Part shown: positions 2,959-50,582 of the stretch, in pieces | Layout: every line of letters begins with the position of its first letter | Position numbering within the stretch: position 1 is the first letter of the stretch | NCBI GenBank assembly: GCA_964384235.1 | Contig: CAYLJX010000001.1 | Span: forward strand, 241,709-305,708 | DNA from: an uncultured Bdellovibrionales bacterium | GTDB taxonomy: Bacteria; Patescibacteriota; Minisyncoccia; Moranbacterales; UBA1568 | Direction: 5' to 3' | DNA length: 64,000 nucleotides | The notes under the pieces: model-generated | Database searches by the model: none | What the model was told of the DNA's origin: nothing | What the model saw: the letters and a program-made list of their open reading frames with translations, nothing else | Program-made: the position numbers and the translations under genes

Positions 2959-3867
2959 ATGAAGATACTCAAGCACAAAACCATCACCTGGATCGATTTC
3001 GAGAATCCAGGCCAGGATGACATCATCTACCTCCAGGAGAACTTCAACATCCATCCTCTCGCGATCGAGGAGCTCGTCACGCCGACCTACCAGCCCAAGG
3101 TCGTCCAGTATGACGGGTGCCTGTTCCTTTCTATCCACATCCCCCTCTTCGACGTGGAGCACCGCACCACCTATCCGGGCGAACTCGATATCATCCTCAC
3201 CAACGACCACCTGATCACGAGCCACAAGCAGAGCATCTATCAGCTTTCGACCTTTCTCGACGAACTCATCAAGAGCGAAGGCAAACGCCGCCTGCACCTG
3301 GAAGACTCCCCGGCCCACCTCCTCCACCGTCTCGTTGAGATTCTCCTCAATTCCTGCTTTCCCAAGCTCAACCACATCGCAGAGAAGCTCGACTTCATCG
3401 AGTCACAGGTCTTCGCCGAGAAGGAAAAAGAGATGGTTTTCGAGATTTCCGTCCTCAAGCGCGATATCCTCAACTTCCGCCGAACGCTCAAACCGCAGCG
3501 TTCCATCTTCGAGTCCATCCTCCAGAAGGATCACCCGTTCATCCCAACCGAGACCAAGATCTACTTCCAGGACCTCATCGGTACCAATATCCGCCTGTGG
3601 AACCTCCTCGAAAGCCAGAAGGAGACCATCGAGGCCCTCGAAGCGACCAACAACTCCCTCCTCTCCAACAAGCTCGACCTCACGATGAAGGTTTTGACCA
3701 TCTTTTCCGCGGTCATGCTCCCCATGACGGCCTATTCCAACATGCTCGCCATGAGCGCGCAGATTCCTTTTGCCAACGTACCCTACGCCTTTTGGATCCA
3801 CGTCGTGATCATGCTGCTCATCTCGCTTATCACCATCACGATCTTCCGGTGGAAGAAGTGGTTCTGA
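2959..3867 (+). CDS. corA: CorA-family magnesium/cobalt transporter
   Basis: Cytoplasmic domain followed by two C-terminal TM helices around a YSNMLAMS motif (a variant of the GMN loop). Start chosen at MKILKHK within ORF 2887..3867. Confidence 0.7.
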   Translation: MKILKHKTITWIDFENPGQDDIIYLQENFNIHPLAIEELVTPTYQPKVVQYDGCLFLSIHIPLFDVEHRTTYPGELDIILTNDHLITSHKQSIYQLSTFLDELIKSEGKRRLHLEDSPAHLLHRLVEILLNSCFPKLNHIAEKLDFIESQVFAEKEKEMVFEISVLKRDILNFRRTLKPQRSIFESILQKDHPFIPTETKIYFQDLIGTNIRLWNLLESQKETIEALEATNNSLLSNKLDLTMKVLTIFSAVMLPMTAYSNMLAMSAQIPFANVPYAFWIHVVIMLLISLITITIFRWKKWF

Positions 3868-3872
3868 CGGGG

Positions 3873-3978
3873 ATGTAGCATGTATCTTGTATCAAGTATC
3901 ACGTATGGCCGCGACACGTCGCGGTTTCTGTTTGCCTTAAATGGCACACTTGATACATAATACCTAATACGTACTACC
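3873..3978. repeat. Palindromic NNGTATC-heptamer element flanking the corA terminator
   Basis: Left arm atgtatcttgtatcaagtatcacgtatg. Right arm cacttgatacataatacctaatacgtac. Each arm is about 4 tandem heptamers, and the arms are mutually inverted around the terminator hairpin. Confidence 0.6.
3906..3932 (+). terminator. Intrinsic terminator after corA
   Basis: Hairpin ccgcgac-ac-gtcgcgg followed by tttctgtttg. Confidence 0.6.
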
Positions 3979-3987
3979 TCAAACGCT

Positions 3988-14670: not shown

Positions 14671-14705
14671 CAGTGAACAGCTAACAGGAAACAGTTAACA
14701 GTATT
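14671..14705 (-). repeat. Tandem heptamer array (CAGNNAA x5 on + strand) in the leader of the FtsA-like gene
   Basis: cagtgaa cagctaa caggaaa cagttaa cagtatt lies between the pfkB stop and the FtsA-like ATG. No Shine-Dalgarno sequence. Confidence 0.55.
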
Positions 14706-23134: not shown

Positions 23135-23575
23135 CTATTTGAGGCATCCAGCCTTGTATCCTCGCTTCTCGGCGTCTTCTTTGGCTGCGAAACACACTCT
23201 GTTCTCCGGTTTGATCCGCTTGGCGCAGGAACTGCTCGGGAGGTGGTACTTGTCGGAATTACGACTGCCGACGAACGCGCACTGTCCCTGCTTCGAAGCC
23301 GTCTCCGTGCCCGACTTCACGACTCCGGAAGAAAGATCTCTTGTCGGATTTTCTGATCCCTGACCCCTCACACCTGACCCCTGTTCAGGAGCGCTCGGGA
23401 TCTCGATCAGGAGCGGCTTGGTTTCCGTTCCCTTTCCTTGGATGAATCCCCCGCCGAATGACAAAGCACCTACCGCCAGAAGGCCAAAAAACAGGAATAT
23501 CCTGTCTTTTCTCTCGGACAGCCACTGTTTCACCCGAAACAGCCTTTCTTTCATTCTTTCGTACAGGTCTTTCAT
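23135..23575 (-). CDS. Membrane-anchored protein with C-terminal Ada-like Zn-binding domain
   Basis: N-terminal TM helix (IFLFFGLLAVGALSF). C-terminus CAFVGSRNSDKYHLPSSSCAKRIKPENRVCFAAKEDAEKRGYKAGC matches the Ada_Zn_binding pattern (YH.psC...eN..fF...eeA...Gy..C). Confidence 0.5.
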   Translation of the reverse strand: MKDLYERMKERLFRVKQWLSERKDRIFLFFGLLAVGALSFGGGFIQGKGTETKPLLIEIPSAPEQGSGVRGQGSENPTRDLSSGVVKSGTETASKQGQCAFVGSRNSDKYHLPSSSCAKRIKPENRVCFAAKEDAEKRGYKAGCLK

Positions 23576-23939: not shown

Positions 23940-23943
23940 AGAT

Positions 23944-24037
23944 CAGTATTGTGTATTTTGTATCAGGTATCTTGTCAAAAAACCGGCCTCAGCCGGTTTT
24001 TTGTTTCTGCAATACGTAATACTTGATACAAGATACA
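23944..24037. repeat. Palindromic NNGTATC-heptamer element flanking the rpmA/pyrG convergent terminator
   Basis: Left arm tattgtgtattttgtatcaggtatcttgtc. Right arm aatacgtaatacttgatacaagatacatcatg, close to the reverse complement of the left arm. The terminator hairpin sits between the arms. Confidence 0.6.
23975..24005. terminator. Bidirectional intrinsic terminator (rpmA + / pyrG -)
   Basis: aaaaaa-accggc-ctca-gccggt-tttttg. Confidence 0.65.
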
Positions 24038-25687
24038 TCATGCCTTTCTCCCACAGGCTTTGAGGAAAGCGACGAAGAGTGGGTGCGGTCTCAAGAGGGA
24101 AGACTGGAACTCCGGATGGAACTGAGTCGCGAGAAAGAAGGGGTGTTTCCCTCGCGGGAGCTCGGCTACCTCCATGAGGATGCCGCTCGGTGACACGGCC
24201 GAGAAGGTAAGTCCCGCTTCCTCGAGCATCTTCACATATTCCGGATTGACCTCGTAGCGATGACGGTGACGCTCCAAGACGGACGACTTGCCATAGGCTT
24301 CCGCCGCGAGAGTGTCCGGCCGGATGAGCGCCTCGTAGTGACCGAGCCGCATGGTGGCACCGTAGTTCTTTTTCCGCAGGTTCTCTTTCTGCTCCGGCAT
24401 GATGTCGATGACCGGATGACCGGTCTTTTTGTCGACTTCAGTGGTATGGGCGCCACGCAGTCCCAGGACATGTCGCGCATATTCGATCACCATGAGCTGC
24501 ATGCCGTAGCAGAGTCCGAAATACGGGATCCCGTTCTCCCGACAGAAACGGATCGCCGAAATCTTTCCCTCGATGCCACGACTGCCGAAACCCCCAGGAA
24601 TCAGCACGCCGTCGAATTTTTTCAACTCTTCCAGTTTCTTCGGGTCTTCCTCGTACTCCGTGCTGTCGATCCAGGTGAGTACGGGCTTGCGTCCCACTTC
24701 GCAGGCGGCATGTTTGAGCGCCTCGATGACGCTGATGTAGGCGTCGGAGAGAACGAAATCCCCGGTCTTGAAATATTTGCCGACGACCCCGATACGGACC
24801 TCATGCTTGGCGTTATGAATACGCCGGACGCGTTTCTCCCATTCGCCGAGATCATGCTTCTTGGCCTTGAGATTGAGCTTTTTGAGAATGATGCGTCCGA
24901 GATCGTCTTTCTCGAAATTGACCGGCACGTCGTAGATACTCTCGACATCCGGCGCGCTCACGACGTCTTCTGTCCGCACGTTGCAGAAGACAGCGATCTT
25001 TTCCTTGCGCTTCTCATCGAGCGGTCGGTCGGCCCGGGCGATGACGATGTCGGGTTGGATACCGGTACCATTGAGCGTCCGGACCGCATGTTGGGTCGGC
25101 TTGGTCTTCATCTCACCCACCTTGGACGGCGTCGGCACATAGCTTACGATGGCGGTGATGACGTTGTCGGGTTCCTCGATCTTCATCATTCGGACCGCCT
25201 CGAGAAAGAGAATGTTTTCGTACTCCCCGACCGTCCCGCCGATCTCGATGATGGCGATATCAGCCTTGGCCTGCTCGGCGGCTTTTCGGATGCGACCGAT
25301 GACCTCCATCGGGATATGCGGCACCACCTGGACGCATTTTCCCTGGTATTCGAGGTTGCGTTCCTTTTCGATCACGGTCTTGTAGACGAGACCGGTCGTC
25401 ATGTAGTTGTCACGGGTGAGCTCGACTCCGAGGAAGCGCTCGTAGTTTCCCATGTCCTGGTCCGTCTCATAGCCATCCTTGAGGACGAAAACCTCACCGT
25501 GCTCCGTCGGATTCATCGTACCGGCATCGACGTTGATGTAAGGGTCGATCTTGAGAGCCGTAACGTTGAGCCCCTTGGACTGGAGGATTTTGCCGATGGA
25601 GGAGACCGCGATACCCTTGCCGACGCCGCTCATCACCCCTCCGACGACAAATATATATTTGGTTTTTCCTGATTTTTTTTTGGCCAT
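24038..25687 (-). CDS. pyrG: CTP synthase
   Basis: 549 aa. N-terminal synthetase domain (YIFVVGGVMSGVGKGIAVSSIG) and C-terminal glutamine amidotransferase domain (GLCYGMQL). Confidence 0.95.
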   Translation of the reverse strand: MAKKKSGKTKYIFVVGGVMSGVGKGIAVSSIGKILQSKGLNVTALKIDPYINVDAGTMNPTEHGEVFVLKDGYETDQDMGNYERFLGVELTRDNYMTTGLVYKTVIEKERNLEYQGKCVQVVPHIPMEVIGRIRKAAEQAKADIAIIEIGGTVGEYENILFLEAVRMMKIEEPDNVITAIVSYVPTPSKVGEMKTKPTQHAVRTLNGTGIQPDIVIARADRPLDEKRKEKIAVFCNVRTEDVVSAPDVESIYDVPVNFEKDDLGRIILKKLNLKAKKHDLGEWEKRVRRIHNAKHEVRIGVVGKYFKTGDFVLSDAYISVIEALKHAACEVGRKPVLTWIDSTEYEEDPKKLEELKKFDGVLIPGGFGSRGIEGKISAIRFCRENGIPYFGLCYGMQLMVIEYARHVLGLRGAHTTEVDKKTGHPVIDIMPEQKENLRKKNYGATMRLGHYEALIRPDTLAAEAYGKSSVLERHRHRYEVNPEYVKMLEEAGLTFSAVSPSGILMEVAELPRGKHPFFLATQFHPEFQSSLLRPHPLFVAFLKACGRKA

Positions 25688-32723: not shown

Positions 32724-35408
<2,685 letters not shown>

Positions 35409-35419
35409 AGCATTGAAGG

Positions 35420-35461
35420 AATAGAGAATATTGAATAAAGAATGAGGAATAAGGAATAAGG
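35420..35461 (-). repeat. Six tandem heptamers (CYTYATT on mRNA; AATNNNG on + strand) filling the secA 5' leader
   Basis: Minus strand reads ccttatt ccttatt cctcatt ctttatt caatatt ctctatt and ends 8 nt before the secA ATG. No Shine-Dalgarno sequence. Confidence 0.65.
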
Positions 35462-35500
35462 AAAAAATCCCTTTCCTGGGCCGTTATATTTTATAGAATA

Positions 35501-40020: not shown

Positions 40021-41166
40021 TCAGGAGAGCTGTTCGAAATGCGATAGAAGAAGCTCGGCACTCTTGTCCCAGGAGAAGGCTTGGAGGCGCGATTTCCCGC
40101 GCGTCAGACACATCTTCCTCGCTTCCTCATCAGTGCACACACTATACAATATATTTTCACAAGCGACAAGGTTCTTCGGATCGAAGTACAGCGCCGCATC
40201 CTCTCCCGTCTCCCGCAGGCTCGGGATATCCGATGCCGCCACCGGCACCCCGACCGCAAAAGCCTCCAGAAGCGGAATCCCGAATCCCTCGTACAGACTG
40301 GGGAACACGAACCCCCTGGAGAGCTTCATGAGCACGGCCAAGTCCTTCTGATCGACAAACCCAGGAAAGATGACGTCTTCCCTGATTTGAGTACGATCGA
40401 TCACGTCGTCGAGACGCGTATCGGCGTGGTGTCCCTGACGGTTGCCGACGAGCACGAGCTTCATCCCGGGCACGCGTTCCTTGAGACGCGCGAAAGCCTC
40501 GATCAAAAACGGGATGTTCTTGCGCGGCTGAAGCGTACCGACGGAGAGAAGAAACTCTTTGGGAAGCGAATACTTCTCACGGACCATGGCGTTTCTTTCC
40601 GTATCATCACTTTCCACGACGAAATCTTCTCCCAGGGCATTAGGCACGACCGCGATCTTCTCCGGATCAGTCCCGTAATACTTCACGATCTCGTCCTTGG
40701 TGAACCGTGACGGCGCGATGACAAGCGCTGCCCGACGAAGCGAGGGCGGGATGAGGAGATCAAGGAAAAATCTGTCCTTCCGGCCGATGAGCTCCGGATA
40801 CGCGGCAAAAGACACATCGTGGATATGTGTCGCGACTTTGGTTCGTCTCGGGACAAAGAATGGCAGTATGTACTGCGTGTGAAAAACATCGACATGGTGA
40901 CGGAACAGAAACCACGGCAGCGTCACGAAGTTCCACACGAAACGGTTGCGCCCGCGAAGCGACACGATCTCCACGTTTTCCTGTCCGACACAACCGAGCG
41001 TACCGTAGAGTGCGGCGACCTTTTCCGGCTCCCGTTCGTTAGTCATGAGGAGGTAGCGGTTCTTCTTGTCGAGCCGCAGGAGCGCCTTGGTCAGGTTGAA
41101 CACCACCGCCTCATCGCCGGTGCGCTTTTTGCCAAGCAGTCTGATGTCGATCGCAAAGGTTTTCAT
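40021..41166 (-). CDS. Glycosyltransferase family 1 (GT4-type)
   Basis: C-terminal EGFGIPLLEAFAVGVPV motif and the RKN motif. 381 aa. Confidence 0.8.
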   Translation of the reverse strand: MKTFAIDIRLLGKKRTGDEAVVFNLTKALLRLDKKNRYLLMTNEREPEKVAALYGTLGCVGQENVEIVSLRGRNRFVWNFVTLPWFLFRHHVDVFHTQYILPFFVPRRTKVATHIHDVSFAAYPELIGRKDRFFLDLLIPPSLRRAALVIAPSRFTKDEIVKYYGTDPEKIAVVPNALGEDFVVESDDTERNAMVREKYSLPKEFLLSVGTLQPRKNIPFLIEAFARLKERVPGMKLVLVGNRQGHHADTRLDDVIDRTQIREDVIFPGFVDQKDLAVLMKLSRGFVFPSLYEGFGIPLLEAFAVGVPVAASDIPSLRETGEDAALYFDPKNLVACENILYSVCTDEEARKMCLTRGKSRLQAFSWDKSAELLLSHFEQLS

Positions 41167-42752
41167 GACGGATTTCTATCATTTTCCATCATCAACGTTC
41201 CCAAAGCAAGAAACAGGAAAAAGAATCCCAGAAGGATACCGGAGTTGAACATGTTGAACACCGTGATGCCTGCCCAGACGGAAGCGACGAAAAGAAAGAG
41301 CGGCCGCATGTTTTCCTCTCCGCGAAACCATCCGTACACCGCCGCCGCGATCACCGAGAACCAGAAAACGACAAACGCGACCAGTCCGATGAGTCCGCTC
41401 CCGAGCCAAATCTCCAAGAACATATTGCTCGCGTTGAGTCCCGCACCGCGCTCATCAGAACCAAGGAAAGCCGCCGCGCTCCCCCATCCGATACCCAGGA
41501 GAGGGTGTTCCCGTATCAGGCCCCAGACTTTTCCATAGATTTCCTTGCGGATCGAGACGTTGGGGTCGTCACGGACGATTTCCTTCACGAAGTGCCCGGC
41601 AACTTTCTCCGCCTCGATATCCTCCAGATCGATGTGTCGGCAACCGAAAGCGGCAAGCTCCGAGACGTCACCGATCTTTTCCGGGAGCGCGACATCCTGC
41701 CCGCACGAGACCGTGATTCTCTGCAGTCCTGACCCGACACTCTGCACGCGGTTCCCAAGTTGGAACGACGTGAGGTGCAGACCCCATACCAACCCGAGTG
41801 CGATGACAAACGAAACAGCGACCGTCCCGACAAACACCATTCCCTCCCTGATCCGCCGCGAGAGGAGAAGTAATCCAGCAAACGTTACGGCACCGATGAC
41901 CGCCCCCAGCCACGCGCTCCTCGCCACGGTGATGATGAGAACGACAAACGAGAGGATAAGCATGACAGCCATGAGCCATGCCTTCGCATCCCGCATTTTC
42001 CGCATGATACATGATACATGATACATGATACTTCCCTGTTCTTTGGAGAAGAACGTCTGATACGCCAAAACATACATCACACCCAAGACTACGATAACGA
42101 AAAGTCCCAGCCAATCCGCCTCGCTGAACGTGGCGTTCGGCCGTCCGGCCATCACCTGAAAGCTTTCCTGCCCCGCGAGGAACCGCACATTCTGCCACAG
42201 GGCATAGCCAAAAACGACGAGCGAAGAACCGAGAAAAAACGGCAGCACCTGCCTGACATCCTCATACGATCGCAGATAGAGACGGGAGAGGAGATAGATC
42301 AGTCCGAACGACGAAAGTACCAGCGCCTGCTTGAACGCGAGCGCCAGGGACGGAGCGTTGAGACTCGCGAAGAACGCCCCGATCGGCACGAACGCGAGAC
42401 AAAAATCGAACCAGCGGAGACGAAGCGGCGCAAGCGACAGTCTCCCCATGACCAGGCGCACCGCGAGAGCGAGCGAGAGGAGCACGGCGATCCACTGATA
42501 CGGCCGAAGCATCATCCCGAAACCTTCCGGAAGGAGATTGACCGTCTCATAAGGAAGCATCCCGATGAGAAAGAGAAATACCCACCCCGGCCGATAGAGA
42601 GCAAAAAGAAAAGCAACGAATGAAAAGAAAAGAAAATTGACCGGATCAAGCGGCACCACACCAGTGTTTGCGAGCACGATCAACACGACGCCAAGGAAGA
42701 TATTCCCCAGGACAAGCATCAGTTTGTTCTGACTCCACCCGAAAAAATTCAT
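41163..42752 (-). CDS. O-antigen ligase/polymerase-like membrane protein (Wzy_C domain)
   Basis: About 12 TM helices and a periplasmic loop with the Wzy_C pattern (AGLNASNMFLEIWLGSGLIGL). Start overlaps the upstream GT4 stop (ATGA). Contains an in-frame (ATGATAC)x4 tract. Confidence 0.65.
   Translation of the reverse strand: MNFFGWSQNKLMLVLGNIFLGVVLIVLANTGVVPLDPVNFLFFSFVAFLFALYRPGWVFLFLIGMLPYETVNLLPEGFGMMLRPYQWIAVLLSLALAVRLVMGRLSLAPLRLRWFDFCLAFVPIGAFFASLNAPSLALAFKQALVLSSFGLIYLLSRLYLRSYEDVRQVLPFFLGSSLVVFGYALWQNVRFLAGQESFQVMAGRPNATFSEADWLGLFVIVVLGVMYVLAYQTFFSKEQGSIMYHVSCIMRKMRDAKAWLMAVMLILSFVVLIITVARSAWLGAVIGAVTFAGLLLLSRRIREGMVFVGTVAVSFVIALGLVWGLHLTSFQLGNRVQSVGSGLQRITVSCGQDVALPEKIGDVSELAAFGCRHIDLEDIEAEKVAGHFVKEIVRDDPNVSIRKEIYGKVWGLIREHPLLGIGWGSAAAFLGSDERGAGLNASNMFLEIWLGSGLIGLVAFVVFWFSVIAAAVYGWFRGEENMRPLFLFVASVWAGITVFNMFNSGILLGFFFLFLALGTLMMENDRNPS
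42004..42031 (-). repeat. Perfect (ATGATAC)x4 heptamer tract inside the Wzy-like CDS
   Basis: Encodes the peptide ...IMYHVSCIM.... The 28-nt tract sits in frame in an otherwise intact ORF. Changing the copy number by one unit would shift the frame. Confidence 0.7.
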
Positions 42753-43978
42753 ATCGTCATTTCCGAAAAAATCTTCTCCACGAACTTGTCCCAACTGAAT
42801 TGTACAATCTGGGCATGAGATCGGGCAACGAGCCTCTCCCGGAGTGCTTCATCACCGAGCAACCGCTCCATCCCCATGACGATCGAATCAGTATCGTGAG
42901 GATCGCAGTACTGTACCGCTTCACCCCCCACTTCCGGAAGTGATGAATTGTTCGAAGCAAGTACCGGCGTTCCCTTACACATCGCCTCCAAGACCGGCAG
43001 ACCGAACCCCTCGTAAAGCGACGGATAGACAAAGAACACCGCGCCGCGATACAGCGCCAGCAGATCTTCTTCCGGGACGAACCCCAGAAGCTTCACTTTT
43101 TCTTCCAATCCTAATTCCTTCACCAACCCCTCTACATCAGTCGCCAACTTATTTTCTTTCGAAAAAATTTTTCCAGAAATAACAAGAGGTGGGATATCGG
43201 CATTTTTTTGTATCTTGTATCTTGTATCTTGTATCTTTGCTTGAAGCATTGCATATGCTTCAAGCAGTGTCTTGGCATTCTTCCTCACTTCCAATCCCCC
43301 ACCATGATAAATGTAGCCCTGTTCGAGGCCGTACTTTTTCAAAACCGTGTCCACTGTCTCATCAGAGATAACTTCACGGAAACGCGGACTGACATCCGGA
43401 TACGCCACAACGATCCGTTCTTCCGAAAGACCGAGATGCTTCACAAGGTCTTGCTTCGTGGCTTCGGACACCGCGACGATCTGGTCTGCACTTCGGATGC
43501 CCCCCTCCACTGCCTTCCAGTGAAGCCTCTGTGACATCTTGCCTAAATATTCCGGAAACAATTTTGGGATGACATCATGTACGACCATTACATGTTTCAG
43601 CTTGTAGCTGGTAGCTGGTAGCTTGTAGCTTTCAAAAGAAGTTGAAGACTGGTAAAGAGAAAGGAAGACGTCACAGCCGTCGGCAGCGGCGCGCTTGGCG
43701 AGCTCGCGCTCCCAGAGCCACTTCCTCGGCACATCATCACGCTTCCACCACTTCGGGAGAAAACTCTTCACTTCAAAGTTCGCTGGAAGATCAATATTGA
43801 TGGGTTCTTCGGTATACAAAATGTATCTTGTATCTTGTATTTTGTATTTTGTATTCCCTTGATACGTAATACCGGATACATGATACTCGGTTAACTTTTG
43901 TAAAAAGTTAGCCGTTACTTGCCCGATACCGGTTCCGGGCTTTCTCAAAAATGACGCGTTGATACCTATTTTTTTCAT
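42749..43978 (-). CDS. Glycosyltransferase family 1 (GT4-type) carrying three in-frame heptamer-repeat insertions
   Basis: N-terminus MKKIGINASFLRKPGTGIGQVTANF and C-terminus EGFGLPVLEAMCKGTPV. Repeat-encoded segments are YHVSGITYQGNTKYKIQDTRYILY, YKLPATSYKLK and KIQDTRYKIQ. Confidence 0.75.
   Translation of the reverse strand: MKKIGINASFLRKPGTGIGQVTANFLQKLTEYHVSGITYQGNTKYKIQDTRYILYTEEPINIDLPANFEVKSFLPKWWKRDDVPRKWLWERELAKRAAADGCDVFLSLYQSSTSFESYKLPATSYKLKHVMVVHDVIPKLFPEYLGKMSQRLHWKAVEGGIRSADQIVAVSEATKQDLVKHLGLSEERIVVAYPDVSPRFREVISDETVDTVLKKYGLEQGYIYHGGGLEVRKNAKTLLEAYAMLQAKIQDTRYKIQKNADIPPLVISGKIFSKENKLATDVEGLVKELGLEEKVKLLGFVPEEDLLALYRGAVFFVYPSLYEGFGLPVLEAMCKGTPVLASNNSSLPEVGGEAVQYCDPHDTDSIVMGMERLLGDEALRERLVARSHAQIVQFSWDKFVEKIFSEMTI
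43209..43236 (-). repeat. (TGTATCT)x4 tract inside the GT4 CDS
   Basis: Four perfect tandem heptamers that encode KIQDTRYKIQ. Confidence 0.7.
43603..43630 (-). repeat. (KGTAGCT)x4 tract inside the GT4 CDS
   Basis: tgtagct ggtagct ggtagct tgtagct, encoding YKLPATSYKL. Confidence 0.65.
43822..43856 (-). repeat. (TGTATYT)x5 tract inside the GT4 CDS, near the N-terminus
   Basis: tgtatct tgtatct tgtattt tgtattt tgtattc, followed by gatacgtaataccggatacatgatac. Confidence 0.65.
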
Positions 43979-44004
43979 TCTTCTATTGTATCAAGGAAAA
44001 GAAA

Positions 44005-44046
44005 AGTTGAGAAAAGAAAAGCGCCCCCAAGGAAACCTCAGGGGCG
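44005..44046 (-). terminator. Intrinsic terminator ending the minus-strand transcript at 44.05-44.73 kb
   Basis: Minus strand hairpin gcgcccc-13 nt loop-ggggcgc followed by ttttcttttctc. Confidence 0.55.
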
Positions 44047-44413
44047 CGGTGTGTCTACGATGTAGGCGGGCGGACGATCGTCACCGATCAGTCGTGTCGG
44101 CCGGTACACAGATCTCAGCCGTGTAGTACCGACACCGTCGATGGTCGCGATCGTCGAGGGGTTGCGATGTTTCCATGCTTCCTCCTCGGTTGTGCGCGAT
44201 AGGCGGATGGCGCGGCGCTTCCCGACGTTGGGAGGGGCCGATGCCACTGGAGAAGTGCTCCCGGTGGCCTACGCGCGATTCGATGATACTACTTCTCTGC
44301 CGAGACGACCTCGGGGTCCAAAGGACAGGTGGTGAGCTCCAGTCAGCCTTTAGGCAAACTTCCGGAAACCGGACGCACACAGGCGAGACGTTCGCTCCCT
44401 TCCGACAGCAAAG
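44047..44413 (-). ncRNA. Candidate structured RNA (~360 nt), or structured 3' UTR of the 106-aa gene; family unassigned
   Basis: GC-rich (~65%) with no plausible ORF in any frame. Dense in stem-loops such as cttccgac..gtcggaag and gtgtcgg..ccgacac. Bounded by its own terminator and preceded by a strong promoter at 44766-44793. Not tmRNA, RNase P or SRP RNA by motif inspection. Confidence 0.3.
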
Positions 44414-44797: not shown

Positions 44798-45676
44798 CTA
44801 CCGGAACCAGACGATGAGCATGGAGCCTGAGACGAGGAGTGCCGTGCCGATGACGTGGCGCCTCGTCACCTGTTCCCCGAACATCATGATCCCGAGAACC
44901 AGCGCGAAGAACGGCATGACCCGCTTGATGGCAAAGACTTCGCTCGCTTTGGCACTCTCCAGGGCGACCGTCGCCGGGCCGTTTTCGAGGAACGCGATGA
45001 CGAGACCCGCGAGAACCATCACGCCGAGTACTTTGCTCCACTGCCCGCTCATCCGGAGTTCCCGGATCGTCTGTCGTTCGTTGGTAAAAAGCACCAAGAG
45101 GAGAAACCCAAAAGCGATCCCGACATGAAACACTGCCGCCGAGAAAAGACCCGAACCGGACTCCGCCACAGCCACTCCCATGAAGACCGACGTGAAGGAA
45201 TATGAGACGACCGTGACGGCGAAATATCCCGTGACCGCGAGCGCCTCGCGTGACAGCTTCTCCTTGGCCGAAAAGAGGATGGCACCCGCCACGACCACCG
45301 CGATACCGACGATCTGCATCATGGTCGGGAGTGTCCCCCGCACGACGTATTCAAGCGGGACGATGAGGAGCGCCGTGAGCGAGATGAAGGGCATCAGTTT
45401 GGACAGGGCCGCCTTGTCGAGGGCGCGGTAGGCCGTCCAGGCGGCGAGCACGTTGAGGACGATGACCATCGCAGAGGCGAAGAAAAACCTGTTTGAAAGA
45501 TGCCCGACGCTCTCCCCGGACATACCATACCCGACCGCGAGCGCGATCCCTGCCACGGCAAAAGACACGAGACCGAGCGTGTTGTTGACACCCTTCTTCT
45601 CGAGCGACTTCTTCTTGAGCGCCCATCCGAACGCCTGCCCGAACGCGGACAAGAGTGAGAGAAATATCCAACTCAT
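44798..45676 (-). CDS. EamA/DMT-family transporter
   Basis: 292 aa with 10 TM helices and duplicated EamA domains. Confidence 0.75.
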   Translation of the reverse strand: MSWIFLSLLSAFGQAFGWALKKKSLEKKGVNNTLGLVSFAVAGIALAVGYGMSGESVGHLSNRFFFASAMVIVLNVLAAWTAYRALDKAALSKLMPFISLTALLIVPLEYVVRGTLPTMMQIVGIAVVVAGAILFSAKEKLSREALAVTGYFAVTVVSYSFTSVFMGVAVAESGSGLFSAAVFHVGIAFGFLLLVLFTNERQTIRELRMSGQWSKVLGVMVLAGLVIAFLENGPATVALESAKASEVFAIKRVMPFFALVLGIMMFGEQVTRRHVIGTALLVSGSMLIVWFR

Positions 45677-48039: not shown

Positions 48040-48130
48040 CAGTTGTCCAGCTAACGGGTTAAAAAGTTAACGGGTTAAAGAATACCGATCGGAACTCGTT
48101 AACCCGTGAACCCGTTAACGGAAAAACAGA
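48040..48130. repeat. GTTAAC-containing palindromic element (8-nt periodic arms)
   Basis: Left arm gttaacgg gttaaaaa gttaacgg gttaaag. Right arm cgttaacc cgtgaacc cgttaacg. A second copy follows the small gene at 48381-48472. Confidence 0.55.
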
Positions 48131-48380: not shown

Positions 48381-48472
48381 TCAGTTAACGAGTTAAAAAG
48401 TTAACGAGTTCGGATACGGAATCCCGGTTTCAACCCGTTAACCCGTGAACCTTTTAACCGTATAACAGAAAA
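48381..48472. repeat. Second copy of the GTTAAC-containing palindromic element
   Basis: cagttaacgagttaaaaagttaacgagtt ... aacccgttaacccgtgaaccttttaaccg. Confidence 0.55.
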
Positions 48473-49461: not shown

Positions 49462-49492
49462 TGTTCTCTGTTTACTGTTAGCTGTTAACTGT
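49462..49492 (+). repeat. Tandem heptamers (CTGTTNN x4) immediately upstream of the GT4 ATG
   Basis: ctgttta ctgttag ctgttaa ctgttat then ATG. No Shine-Dalgarno sequence. The same motif family occurs in the FtsA-like leader. Confidence 0.55.
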
Positions 49493-49493
49493 T

Positions 49494-50582
49494 ATGAAGA
49501 TTCTTTTCATATCGAGAGCGTATCCCCCTGTGGTAGGTGGCATCGAGAACCAGAACTACGAGCTCTCGGTGTGGCTCCCGAAACTCGCAGAGACCAGGAC
49601 GATCGCCAATACGCGCGGGAAACCTTTTCTCCCTTTTTTTACCCCTTACGCCCTTTTGAGGGCCATTTTTCTCGTGCCGCGTTACGACGTGCTTCTTCTC
49701 GGTGACGGCGTCCTCGGCATCGTCGGCTGGTTCGTGAAATTTTTCTATCCGAAGAAAACCGTCGTCTCGGTCGTCCACGGTCTCGATCTCACGTTCACGA
49801 GCGGTATTTACCAACGCTTCTGGGTACGGAAATTCCTGCCCGCGCTCGACGGACTGATAGCCGTCGGAAATGAGACCATCCGTCAGGGTGTCGCCCGCGG
49901 CATCCCGGAAGACAAATTCTTCTTCGTCCCTAACGGCGTGGACACGGAGAAATATTTCGGCAGACACGATCGCAAGGAACTGGAAAAGATTCTCGGCCTC
50001 CCGCTCGAAGGCAAACGTGTCCTCCTCACATCCGGCCGCCTCGCGAAACGAAAGGGTGTCGCCTGGTTCATCCGCTCTGTCATGCCGAAACTTCCGGAGA
50101 ACATCCTCTACGTCGTCGCCGGTGACGGGGCCGACCGGGAAAACATCAATCGAGCGGTGCAGGAAACCGGCCTCGCCTCGCGCGTGAAACTCCTCGGCTA
50201 TGTTTCGGACGAAGTACGAAACGTCCTCCTCAACACCAGCGACCTCTTCATCCAGCCCAATATCCGGGTCAAGGGGGACATGGAAGGCTTCGGTATCTCC
50301 GTCATCGAGGCCGCTTCATGCGAACTCCCCGTCATCGCCTCGCGCCTCGAAGGTCTCCAGGACGCCATCCAGGACGGCGAGAACGGCCTCCTGGTAGAAA
50401 CGGAAGATGCCGACGGATATGTCTCCGCTATCACAGGACTCCTCGATGATCTCGCCCGTCTCAGTGACTTCAAATCAGAAGTCCGACGCTACACAGTGGA
50501 ACATTTCTCCTGGGAACACATAGCCTCGCGCTACATCGCCGTGCTGGAAAAAATCGCTGAAATGGGGCATAATGGGAAGTAA
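49494..50582 (+). CDS. Glycosyltransferase family 1 (GT4-type)
   Basis: 362 aa. EGFGISVIEAASCELPVIAS motif and N-terminal GT-B domain. Confidence 0.8.
   Translation: MKILFISRAYPPVVGGIENQNYELSVWLPKLAETRTIANTRGKPFLPFFTPYALLRAIFLVPRYDVLLLGDGVLGIVGWFVKFFYPKKTVVSVVHGLDLTFTSGIYQRFWVRKFLPALDGLIAVGNETIRQGVARGIPEDKFFFVPNGVDTEKYFGRHDRKELEKILGLPLEGKRVLLTSGRLAKRKGVAWFIRSVMPKLPENILYVVAGDGADRENINRAVQETGLASRVKLLGYVSDEVRNVLLNTSDLFIQPNIRVKGDMEGFGISVIEAASCELPVIASRLEGLQDAIQDGENGLLVETEDADGYVSAITGLLDDLARLSDFKSEVRRYTVEHFSWEHIASRYIAVLEKIAEMGHNGK

Follow-up and report, generated by a model that had tools for sequence, protein, structure and literature searches.

The heptanucleotide repeats of Calothrix PCC 7601 go by the name STRR. 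Three tandemly repeated heptanucleotides have been described from that strain (PMC4692102), and bacterial genomes are known to be enriched in heptanucleotide repeats, according to the passages of PMC4679880 and PMC4692102 that cite Mrazek 2007. Dispersed arrays of TAACTGA (in Beggiatoaceae and cyanobacteria) and of GGGNATC (in Xanthomonas and Nostoc) consist of 2-6 or more units, with particular units preferred in particular genomes, and lie mostly between genes, often directly upstream of start codons (PMC4679880, PMC4692102). In Haemophilus influenzae, (TGAAAGA)n lies in the hmw1A and hmw2A promoters and (AATTTTG)14 within an open reading frame of strain PittAA; these tracts run to 13-38 units without interruption, vary in length from strain to strain and include frameshifted alleles (PMC2651432). 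Our full-text literature search found no report of heptanucleotide arrays of this kind in Patescibacteria. Rickettsia palindromic elements, which form hairpins, occur between genes and also in frame in genes unrelated to one another, where the fold of the protein allows it (PMC10969869).

We analysed a Moranbacteria locus within a 64-kb stretch of DNA, hereafter the window, in which a sequence-only reading had reported four heptanucleotide tracts inside two surface-polysaccharide genes and had taken them for classic phase-variable contingency loci. All four tracts lie where that reading had placed them, and all are in frame. Two further in-frame tracts, one in secA and one in a small open reading frame, had escaped that reading. 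The two genes and all six tracts are as follows.

42749-43978, minus strand: gene for a GT4 (GT-B fold) glycosyltransferase of 409 aa, with three tract sites inside.
41163-42752, minus strand: gene for a membrane protein of the Wzy_C family (O-antigen ligase/polymerase), with 529 aa counted from the ATG at 42752.
43815-43892, minus strand: GT4 site 1 (codons about 30-54), an inverted double array forming a segmented hairpin.
43599-43631, minus strand: GT4 site 2 (codons about 113-128), AGCTTGT x4.7 by TRF with 92% matches; an AGCTACM array encoding SYKLPATSYKL.
43208-43237, minus strand: GT4 site 3 (codons about 246-262), TTGTATC x4.3 by TRF with 100% matches; (AAGATAC)4 on the coding strand, encoding KIQDTRYKIQ.
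42003-42031, minus strand: Wzy tract, CATGATA x4.1 by TRF with 100% matches; (GTATCAT)4 on the coding strand, encoding IMYHVSCIM.
32866-32895, minus strand: SecA tract found by TRF, a CAATCAA-type heptamer in frame, encoding NQQSTTNSQQ in the C-terminal linker between the SecA_SW and SEC-C domains (Pfam).
23353-23383: sixth in-frame tract, in a small open reading frame (23135-23575) without a family match.

The peptides quoted by the earlier reading (KIQDTRYKIQ, YKLPATSYKLK and IMYHVSCIM) are correct translations. On the plus strand, site 1 includes a left array (TGTATYT)5 at 43822-43856, which TRF reports at 43822-43855 as x4.9 with 96% matches and whose fifth unit is TGTATTC. Directly after it, at 43861-43886, comes an inverted right array, (RATACNN)4, with the sequence GATACGTAATACCGGATACATGATAC; this partner had gone unnoticed in the earlier reading.

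Both host genes belong to well-defined families. The GT4 protein matches Glycos_transf_1 (1.7e-27) and Glyco_transf_4 (2.8e-12) in Pfam, and its AlphaFold model (mean pLDDT 86.8, pTM 0.86) finds MshA, BshA and WaaG as its best Foldseek matches, with E values down to 3e-20; it thus has the two Rossmann-like domains and the GT4 signatures of a GT-B enzyme. The Wzy_C frame is open over 41163-42794, with 42752 as the most likely ATG, and its product is a polytopic membrane protein matching PF04932 (8.7e-18) over residues 278-475, which places it in the Wzy_C/O-antigen ligase family as a putative polymerase or ligase. The GT4 stop and Wzy_C start codons overlap as ATGA at 42749-42752, and the surrounding cluster, comprising a second GT4, a LytR_cpsA_psr protein, a GT2 and a UDP-glucose dehydrogenase, is that of a surface polysaccharide. 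We collected 119 full-length GT4 orthologs, and those with names come from Moranbacteria/Patescibacteria. Scans of metagenomes and genomes gave at least 25 orthologs of the Patescibacteria type, the closest among the matches listed being L092 (61% identical), and the DNA of close relatives was obtained through exact-protein look-ups.

A periodicity of 7 nt extends well beyond these genes. When exact tandem runs with periods of 2-15 were scanned across the window, six were found at period 7 and 0-1 at each other period, making 7 the sole enriched tandem period. TRF reports 13 period-7 rows in the window, most of them between genes, and tracts of the same kind occupy about a dozen intergenic sites; a core-spacing scan places the coding units in the same GTATC family as the intergenic arrays, as had been claimed. 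The coding units of every tract are open in all three coding-strand frames, and the units CAGTTAA and CTGTTAA, found in 5' leaders, contain stops on both strands. TRF on 11 ortholog loci gave period 7 as the commonest in all 11, and exact period-7 arrays are present also in Chloroflexi, cyanobacterial and Acidobacteria loci. A resemblance between a coding unit and the intergenic unit of the same genome is anecdotal (GTATC in the window, CAGTTAA/AACAG in L085).

The window resembles the genomes with dispersed arrays in its genome-wide type of excess of short period-7 arrays, over-represented, dispersed, mostly intergenic and often placed right before start codons. It differs from them in that the dispersed arrays are reportedly under-represented within coding sequence, TAACTGA carrying stops in its forward orientation, whereas here arrays lie in frame in defined loops of conserved enzymes in many species, and some form inverted pairs. 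The likeness to H. influenzae lies in tandem 7-nt units, in genes for surface structures, a change in whose number moves the reading frame or affects expression (PMC2651432); here, however, there are 4-5 units per tract, assemblies agree on tract length and the search for OFF alleles gave none. Like Rickettsia palindromic elements, the repeats of the window form hairpins and occur both between genes and in frame within them, but those elements are about 150 bp long, fall into defined sequence families and encode a conserved peptide, whereas the present ones span 30-80 nt, are built of 7-nt units with a short shared core and show no sign of transposition.

In the AlphaFold model the GT4 tracts fill three loops that join secondary-structure elements of the GT-B fold. 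The pLDDT falls under 50 at residues 35-43 (site 1) and 255-259 (site 3), and in distant orthologs the loops there are minimal, in keeping with the proposal that the tracts are in-frame loop insertions. The Wzy tract falls in a short hydrophilic stretch flanked by two hydrophobic segments. Across 26 ortholog genes, lag 7 was the best period in 18/18 strongly periodic site segments, and with lags of 3 to 12 no window outside the three sites scored as high as 18/21 matches. Sites 2 and 3 hold a period-7 array in every close ortholog, each with a different unit; unlike units occupy the same site in orthologs ~65% identical, those of site 3 being AACAGnn, GAACAGn, AATTYCn, CAGGAAT and a 14-mer. 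Amino-acid identity across orthologs is 0.31 at site 2 and 0.15 at site 3, and five pairs that are 91-95% identical elsewhere (P0035/P0055, P0045/P0053, P0072/P0077, P0027/P0034 and P0017/P0022) have unrelated loops at one or more sites. Units have thus turned over completely between close species, which shows instability at sites 2 and 3 on an evolutionary time scale. Among the 119 orthologs the site 2 loop clusters at 7-9 and 14-16 aa, modes ~7 aa apart, so that the step equals three units. In L044 a whole domain is inserted at site 3. The AACAG-type site 3 arrays of orthologs run on from conserved K-Q-L codons (AAACAGTTA), which points to nucleation in place rather than insertion. The Wzy loop carries GTATATC x4 in L086 and three arrays in L004, and is without an insert in the others.

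Site 1 behaves otherwise: it is conserved at the nucleotide level in 10 species, with a constant number of units and a constant core. Its shape is (GTATY)4…(RATAC)4-5, with helices of 4-6 bp separated by mismatched spacers of 1-2 nt, and its RNA fold scores z = -4.5 for the sense strand and -5.2 for the antisense. In 10 orthologs 92% of cells were paired, compared with 15-61% when the partners were slid. Covariation is modest, with four pairs changed on both sides and the observed number of double changes reached by 18/500 shuffles, for a structure derived from one of the compared sequences. By raw identical-codon fraction site 1 is the top-ranked region of the GT4 gene (0.75 versus 0.47 gene-wide; 541 identical pairs observed versus 368 expected). 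Within the cores, Val is GTA in 10/10, Thr is ACG in 9/9 and Ile is ATA in 8/8 cases, and the third positions that vary lie in the spacers. The ortholog L001 has the same architecture built of another unit (GAATATC/GATATTC; z = -3.7). Given such nucleotide-level selection, site 1 probably functions as an element of RNA or DNA, with relatives in the terminator-flanking arms found elsewhere in this genome.

A secondary structure is not a general property of the tracts, a possibility that we rejected: neither site 2 (z = -0.5) nor the Wzy tract (z = +0.6) forms a significant fold, and the only folding parts are site 1 and a hairpin beside site 3 (RNA fold -17.9 kcal/mol, z = -5.4), the latter not evident in the GT4 ortholog sequences compared. 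An Rfam scan of the whole window gave one tRNA match and nothing else. This hairpin and three intergenic elements of the site 1 type are the following, no strand being assigned to the intergenic ones.

43238-43266, minus strand: perfect 12-bp hairpin within conserved codons (LLEAYAMLQA) that, on the coding strand, adjoin the 5' side of the site 3 array.
795-878: composite element copy filling the operon spacer between grpE and dnaK, (GTATY N2)4 … (RATAC N2)4 by core-spacing scan; z = -3.6 and -6.8 on the two strands.
3882-3970: composite element copy in the corA-cysS interval, placed around a terminator-like GC hairpin that has a U tract; z = -4.0.
23946-24036: composite element copy between the convergent genes rpmA and pyrG, enclosing a bidirectional terminator-like hairpin; z = -7.2 and -7.6.

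The four composite copies in the window, site 1 included, share only GTATY/RATAC cores at 7-nt spacing, and their centres are unrelated. The inverted GTATC arrays at 3882-3970 and 23946-24036 extend terminator-like stems at the 3' ends of genes, as do REP-like and terminator-like hairpins such as pneumococcal SPRITE, a likeness of architecture only; here the arms consist of heptad repeats interrupted by mismatched spacers, not of an unbroken palindrome, and one copy lies inside an open reading frame under purifying selection.

We interpret these observations as the probable outcome of a heptanucleotide microsatellite process that operates across the lineage and whose products selection confines to permissive loops, together with one conserved nucleic-acid element within coding sequence. 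The four tracts would then be in-frame members of a larger set of period-7 arrays, spread over the genome and characteristic of this Moranbacteria lineage as well as of several other bacterial phyla. Most of these arrays are intergenic, in 5' leaders abutting start codons or as terminator flanks. Arrays would arise and be remodelled locally, with replication slippage as the likely generator and with one unit giving way to another. Within genes, selection would retain only those arrays that are free of stops in all three coding-strand frames, add a multiple of 3 nt and lie in loops tolerating disordered peptide; the places so permitted would be the three GT4 loops, one Wzy loop between hydrophobic segments and the SecA C-terminal linker. 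Sites 2 and 3 and the Wzy tract turn over fast with the period fixed at 7, unit and loop length changing even at >90% identity, and are nevertheless fixed among the strains sampled, while the inverted double array of site 1 is held by selection on its nucleotides. The anatomy, the position in loops, the turnover across species, the constraint on synonymous sites and the stability among strains are observed; slippage as the source of the arrays and a function of the hairpin are inferred. One observation sits uneasily with this account: 4/6 coding tracts of the 64-kb window fall in GT4 and Wzy_C, two adjacent glycan genes, and tolerance alone gives no obvious reason for it.

That concentration, which recurs in the genome of L086, is among the grounds for considering that the tracts are slipped-strand contingency tracts in which a one-unit change reversibly switches GT4 or Wzy off, giving surface-glycan heterogeneity that might serve, for example, against phages or in host attachment. 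We regard this as unlikely, although several observations speak for it. Both genes lie in a surface-polysaccharide cluster, the repeat inside each frame is not a triplet, and many species keep arrays of non-triplet units at the same sites even as the units turn over. As the sequence-only reading had foreseen, the loss or gain of one unit breaks the genes (GT4 to 64-136 or 278-279 aa, Wzy to 286 or 363 aa); changes of ±7 or ±14 nt truncate both proteins and ±21 nt keeps the frame. Since GT4 is cytoplasmic, diversity of its loops brings no evident benefit, and on/off switching stays conceivable as the selected trait. Three Logan contigs, drawn from three sequencing runs, each have their start within the 30-nt tract of site 3, as copy-number heterogeneity could cause, although no unique branching scenario of 3, 4 or 5 units could be reconstructed for these starts at an assumed k of 31 and a shared repeat elsewhere would give the same result.

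The tracts themselves argue the other way. They have 4.1-4.9 units, with mismatches in 2/4, and by comparison with the 13-38 units of characterised heptanucleotide switches (PMC2651432), rather than by a measured rate, they lack the uninterrupted length of hypermutable repeats. None of the three GT4 tracts has an indel relative to the 98.7%-identical strain L081, the Wzy tract aligns without a gap to the 99.9%-identical contig L082, and the exact 529-aa Wzy protein is encoded on five public contigs; tract length does not differ among five independent assemblies, a comparison at consensus level in a small sample of strains. By exact look-up, neither the eight predicted ±1-unit products nor the two ±3-unit products, both of site 3, occur in a collection of 15 billion proteins. 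The ortholog genes examined contain no frame break, a comparison of low power because few arrays are among the loci retrieved without a bias towards intact frames. Site 1, which as the N-terminal tract would be the best-placed switch, is constant in unit number and core across 10 species, conservation of the sort that the sequence-only reading had itself said would speak against switching, and an equivalent tract in the essential housekeeping gene secA shows that tracts are not specific to glycan genes. The slipped-strand proposal is supported in part, by the frame-breaking unit and the long-term instability of sites 2 and 3; the shortness of the tracts and their fixity between strains run against it, and with the secA tract and the absence of an OFF allele from the collection they give no support to a classic contingency locus.

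The microsatellite account has also to be weighed against remnants of small palindromic mobile elements of the MITE/REP kind, inserted like Rickettsia palindromic elements between genes and in frame in permissive loops, for which in-frame insertion is frequent (PMC10969869). Site 1 shares its (GTATY)4…(RATAC)4 hairpin architecture with the three intergenic elements, REP-like peptides (LGYARDDK and LDSRLRGNDK) and GC-rich hairpins appear at the same sites in other orthologs, a GC-rich palindrome is nested within a heptamer array in L092, and L044 has its inserted domain at site 3. We nonetheless find a mobile origin improbable. The four composite copies in 64 kb of genome have only cores of 4-5 nt at 7-nt spacing in common, with no extended consensus, defined ends or visible target-site duplications, and the intergenic copies enclose different centres; a hairpin in frame at a tolerated position is found at site 1 only, sites 2 and 3 and the Wzy tract being single direct, non-palindromic arrays without an inverted partner; and the continuation of K-Q-L codons by AACAG-type arrays again speaks for growth in place. 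That the loops are ordinary lineage-specific insertions, with the 7-nt period a coincidence or a by-product of peptide repeats, is very hard to credit: loops of this family are disordered and variable in length, as in many enzymes, but the periodicity belongs to the DNA, 7 nt being out of phase with codons, the strongly periodic segments of orthologs and the exact runs of the window single out period 7, and third-position conservation tracks the DNA cores and not the amino acids. Chance and peptide-level repeats were rejected on the same out-of-phase signal, confined as it is to three sites. Three more readings, namely a diversity-generating retroelement, a slippery heptamer causing programmed ribosomal frameshifting, and a coiled-coil heptad behind the 7-aa peptide period, were set aside, as the sequences have none of the motifs that define them.

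A further idea, speculative and in our view improbable, is that heptad-repeat elements form a functional system in Moranbacteria. Inverted GTATC-type arrays would be recognition sites for a protein that scans single-stranded RNA or DNA 7 nt at a time; they would flank terminators, with the copy in the 5' part of the GT4 gene serving as a cis-regulatory hairpin, and the direct arrays in the GT4 and Wzy loops would be evolvable frameshift switches of low rate. If true, an uncultured episymbiont lineage would possess a mild contingency system for its surface glycans.

Among the long simple repeats of many bacteria, heptanucleotide repeats are the most frequent kind. The GT4 family offers a natural experiment on them, three defined loops having been rebuilt repeatedly from 7-nt arrays in more than 100 Patescibacteria orthologs, so that one can measure how fast units turn over, how the reading frame filters arrays and how native codons seed them. 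The synonymous constancy of site 1 marks a probable RNA or DNA element within coding sequence, with intergenic relatives at terminators. Taken alone, a non-triplet repeat in a gene for surface glycans does not demonstrate phase variation, nor does it count as evidence for it, and low-complexity loops in the proteins of these uncultured bacteria can stem from DNA repeats rather than from adaptive peptides, a point that bears on their annotation.

Tandem Repeats Finder recovered all four heptanucleotide tracts that the sequence-only reading had placed inside a glycosyltransferase gene and its Wzy-like neighbour, and both minus-strand genes stay open across them, as that reading held. The ORF at 42749–43978 (409 aa; hereafter GT4) matches Glycos_transf_1 and Glyco_transf_4, and the neighbouring ORF matches Wzy_C. 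In the sequence ATGA the Wzy start codon (42752) overlaps the GT4 stop, and public assemblies carry the 529-aa Wzy form that starts at this ATG. An inverted array in site 1 and in-frame tracts in SecA and in a small ORF had been missed; these are listed last.

42003–42031, in Wzy (minus strand): CATGATA, 4.1 copies, 100% matches
43208–43237, site 3 of GT4 (minus strand): TTGTATC, 4.3 copies, 100% matches
43599–43631, site 2 of GT4 (minus strand): AGCTTGT, 4.7 copies, 92% matches
43822–43855, site 1 of GT4 (minus strand): TGTATTT, 4.9 copies, 96% matches
43861–43886, site 1 of GT4: inverted array GATACGTAATACCGGATACATGATAC, 5 nt past the 43822 array
32866–32895: in-frame tract in SecA
23353–23383: in-frame tract in a small ORF without family match

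Exact tandem runs, counted for every period from 2 to 15, number six at period 7 and 0–1 at each other period; the period-7 signal is not due to chance. The two genes belong to a cell-envelope glycan cluster whose other members include a second GT4, a LytR_cpsA_psr protein, GT2 enzymes, an EamA transporter and UDP-glucose dehydrogenase, and the named GT4 homologs are from Candidatus Moranbacteria or Patescibacteria. A promoter-like site at 43985–44013 (minus strand; TTCTCA, 17-nt spacer, TG-TACAAT), a consensus match only, ends 6 nt short of the GT4 start codon, so that the mRNA leader would be very short or absent; a terminator-like hairpin (44021–44047) lies just upstream of it.

We modelled GT4 with AlphaFold, using 34 orthologs as input (mean pLDDT 86.8, pTM 0.86). 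The best solved-structure matches of the model are the GT-B enzymes MshA, BshA and WaaG, and the predicted placement of the insertions in loops of this fold is borne out: site 1 falls between helix 17–34 and strand 50–56, site 2 between strands 104–107 and 128–133, and site 3 between helix 234–252 and strand 265–268, with pLDDT below 50 only at residues 35–43 and 255–259. Among 119 aligned orthologs, the lengths between fixed anchors range over 8–38 (site 1), 6–29 (site 2) and 6–40 residues (site 3); the site peptides are not conserved family-wide, and in more distant orthologs the loops are minimal and repeat-free. In Wzy, the tract codes for a short hydrophilic stretch flanked by two hydrophobic segments, a topology predicted from sequence. 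In a Parcubacteria GT4 ortholog (L044, 10664–11329), a whole 222-codon Ser_hydrolase domain (PF06821, E 1.3e-18) sits precisely at site 3 as an in-frame insertion, with heptamer-like low-complexity sequence on either side; this loop therefore tolerates an entire domain.

Ortholog DNA comprised 10 sequences sharing site 1, plus about 25 more distant ones among the matches listed. Sites 2 and 3 hold a period-7 array in every close ortholog, each with a differing unit; at site 3 this is AAGATAC in the window, AACAGnn in L085, GAACAGn in L086, AATTYCn in L087, CAGGAAT in L089 and a 14-mer in L090. Amino-acid identity across the 10 orthologs is low at site 2 (0.31) and site 3 (0.15) compared with 0.67 elsewhere, and protein pairs that are 91–95% identical off-site (for example, P0035/P0055, P0045/P0053, P0072/P0077, P0027/P0034 and P0017/P0022) can have unrelated loops of different length at at least one of the three sites. 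Lag 7 is the best period in all 18 strongly periodic site segments from 26 genes, in which no window outside the three sites reached 18 of 21 matches at lags 3–12. Site 2 lengths cluster at 7–9 and 14–16 residues, a step of about 7 residues that corresponds to three units, the smallest frame-keeping change. The AACAG-type arrays of site 3 extend conserved K-Q-L codons (AAACAGTTA), which suggests that they were seeded from native sequence. The Wzy loop behaves likewise, with GTATATC x4 at the same position in L086 and three arrays there in L004. Adjoining the site 3 array of the window, a perfect 12-bp hairpin (43238–43266, z = −5.4) lies in conserved LLEAYAMLQA codons and is not evident in the orthologs; quasi-palindrome template switching could have produced it, or it could itself cause slippage locally.

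Site 1 (43815–43892) is different in kind. Its inverted arrays fold on the sense strand (z = −4.5) as a segmented hairpin of 4–6-bp GUAUY/RAUAC helices separated by mismatched spacers of 1–2 nt, and this hairpin is kept in 10 of 10 orthologs, with 92% of cells paired as against 15–61% when partners are slid. Four pairs have changed on both sides, a count reached in 18 of 500 shuffles and only suggestive. Synonymous constraint is the stronger result: among same-amino-acid pairs the codon is identical in 75% at site 1 versus 47% gene-wide (541 observed against 368 expected from amino-acid-specific rates), and site 1 windows top the gene's ranking by raw identical-codon fraction. Third positions are invariant in the cores (Val GTA 10/10, Thr ACG 9/9, Ile ATA 8/8, Asp GAT 9/9) and vary freely in the spacers (Ser TCN, Gly GGN, Gln CAR). 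The L001 ortholog, which is more distant, has the same kind of inverted-array hairpin there, assembled instead from GAATATC/GATATTC units (z = −3.7). In the GT4 of L092 (about 3085–3200), a GC-rich palindrome, CCGCC…GGCGG (PAESGPRQGGG), is nested at site 1 within an AATTTCA heptamer array, recalling the small dispersed repeats of cyanobacteria that are reportedly nested in heptamer repeats.

The (GTATY N2)4…(RATAC N2)4 architecture recurs in three more copies in the window, all intergenic:

795–878: grpE–dnaK spacer
3882–3970 (wider bounds 3868–3985): around a terminator-like hairpin after corA, z = −4.0
23946–24036 (wider bounds 23940–24042): around a bidirectional terminator-like hairpin between convergent rpmA and pyrG, z = −7.2 and −7.6

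Inverted GTATC heptad arrays lengthen the stems of both terminator-like hairpins, and the site 1 element is probably related to these terminator-flanking arms. A long plus-strand ORF (28–828) that matches Pfam NAD-GH (PF10712) is probably spurious; the minus strand there encodes DnaK, with its start near 741, as part of an hrcA-grpE-dnaK operon. Two hairpins of inverted 8-nt arrays (GTTAACGG/CCGTTAAC type; 48052–48119 and 48383–48459, z = −3.9 and −2.7) are separated by about 260 nt in the interval from the UDP-glucose dehydrogenase gene to a GT2 gene.

Many further period-7 arrays, mostly intergenic, occur across the window; several abut start codons and are on the sense strand wherever checked:

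2144–2173: directly upstream of the hrcA start
3953–3979: directly upstream of the cysS start
14671–14702: directly upstream of the start of an FtsA-like gene
35416–35467: directly upstream of the secA start
49468–49494: upstream of another GT4 gene, running into its ATG

Their position resembles that reported for the TAACTGA repeats of Beggiatoaceae and cyanobacteria. Seven is also the commonest Tandem Repeats Finder period in 11 orthologous Moranbacteria/Patescibacteria loci, and loci recovered as by-catch from Chloroflexi, cyanobacteria and Acidobacteria often contain exact period-7 arrays. Surplus heptanucleotide repeats are documented in bacterial genomes, described examples being the heptanucleotide arrays of cyanobacteria and the TAACTGA and GGGNATC repeats, all of unknown function (PMC4679880, PMC4692102). 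A full-text literature search found no report of heptanucleotide repeats in the candidate phyla radiation.

The tracts had been read as phase-variable contingency loci. This interpretation is only partly supported: its frame logic, gene class and site turnover stand, whereas the tracts are short, the few strains compared show no length difference and none of the predicted OFF alleles was found. Gain or loss of one or two units would truncate Wzy to 286–363 aa and GT4, according to which tract changes, to 57–74, 124–136 or 271–286 aa, but the tracts comprise only 4–5 units, two of them being imperfect, compared with 13–38 in characterised H. influenzae heptanucleotide switches (PMC2651432). The two genes are of a class that often bears contingency repeats and account for four of the six tracts that fall within coding sequence in the 64 kb; however, the essential gene secA carries an equivalent tract. 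Turnover of units between species shows that the sites are mutationally active, yet site 1, best placed for a switch because it is nearest the N-terminus, is constant across species. At consensus level and in a small sample, a separate sample yielded a second strain, L081 (98.7% identity across 4.3 kb), that has no indel in the GT4 tracts, its indels being intergenic and its two GT4 substitutions outside the tracts; a 6-kb contig from a third sample (99.9% identical) has no gap over the Wzy tract; and five contigs encode one and the same Wzy protein. None of eight predicted ±1-unit and two ±3-unit products occurs among about 15 billion proteins, and the ortholog genes examined contain no frame breaks. 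We consider a true low-rate phase switch unlikely. Three Logan contigs from three sequencing runs (L082, L083 and L084) cross the 29-nt Wzy tract unbroken and share the same first base (window position ~43234), inside the 30-nt (TTGTATC)4 tract of site 3, which fits an assembly-graph branch and could reflect heterogeneous copy number or the presence of the repeat at a second locus. Separately, 44 of the 49 substitutions that separate L081 from the window over the 4.3 kb are crowded into roughly 500 nt of the gene for the EamA transporter (45124–45608), a cluster that suggests a recombination tract.

That the tracts are RPE- or MITE-like mobile palindromes is, in our judgement, distinctly improbable, and that they are coincidental loop insertions is hardly credible. 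Excess heptanucleotide repeats, simple repeats in coding sequence and palindromic insertions in frame are each already known; we found no description of turning-over 7-nt arrays persistently in frame in defined enzyme loops across a large Patescibacteria gene family, nor of a heptad-built hairpin under synonymous constraint within the same gene. The arrays are best explained by selection acting as a filter on a heptanucleotide microsatellite process that spans the lineage. Slippage would create and remodel the arrays, which within genes would persist only where they are stop-free in the three coding-strand frames, add a multiple of three bases and lie in permissive loops. The stop filter is visible: every coding tract is oriented with its unit open in all frames, and in the 5′ leaders the units CAGTTAA and CTGTTAA contain stops whichever strand is read. 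Its outcome at site 2, site 3 and the Wzy loop would be short, fast-evolving, disordered linkers. Site 1 is a separate case, probably a conserved nucleic-acid element within coding sequence, in the form of an RNA hairpin or of a repeated motif for protein binding, that may serve in mRNA processing or stability, in translation control or as the binding site of a factor reading in 7-nt steps.
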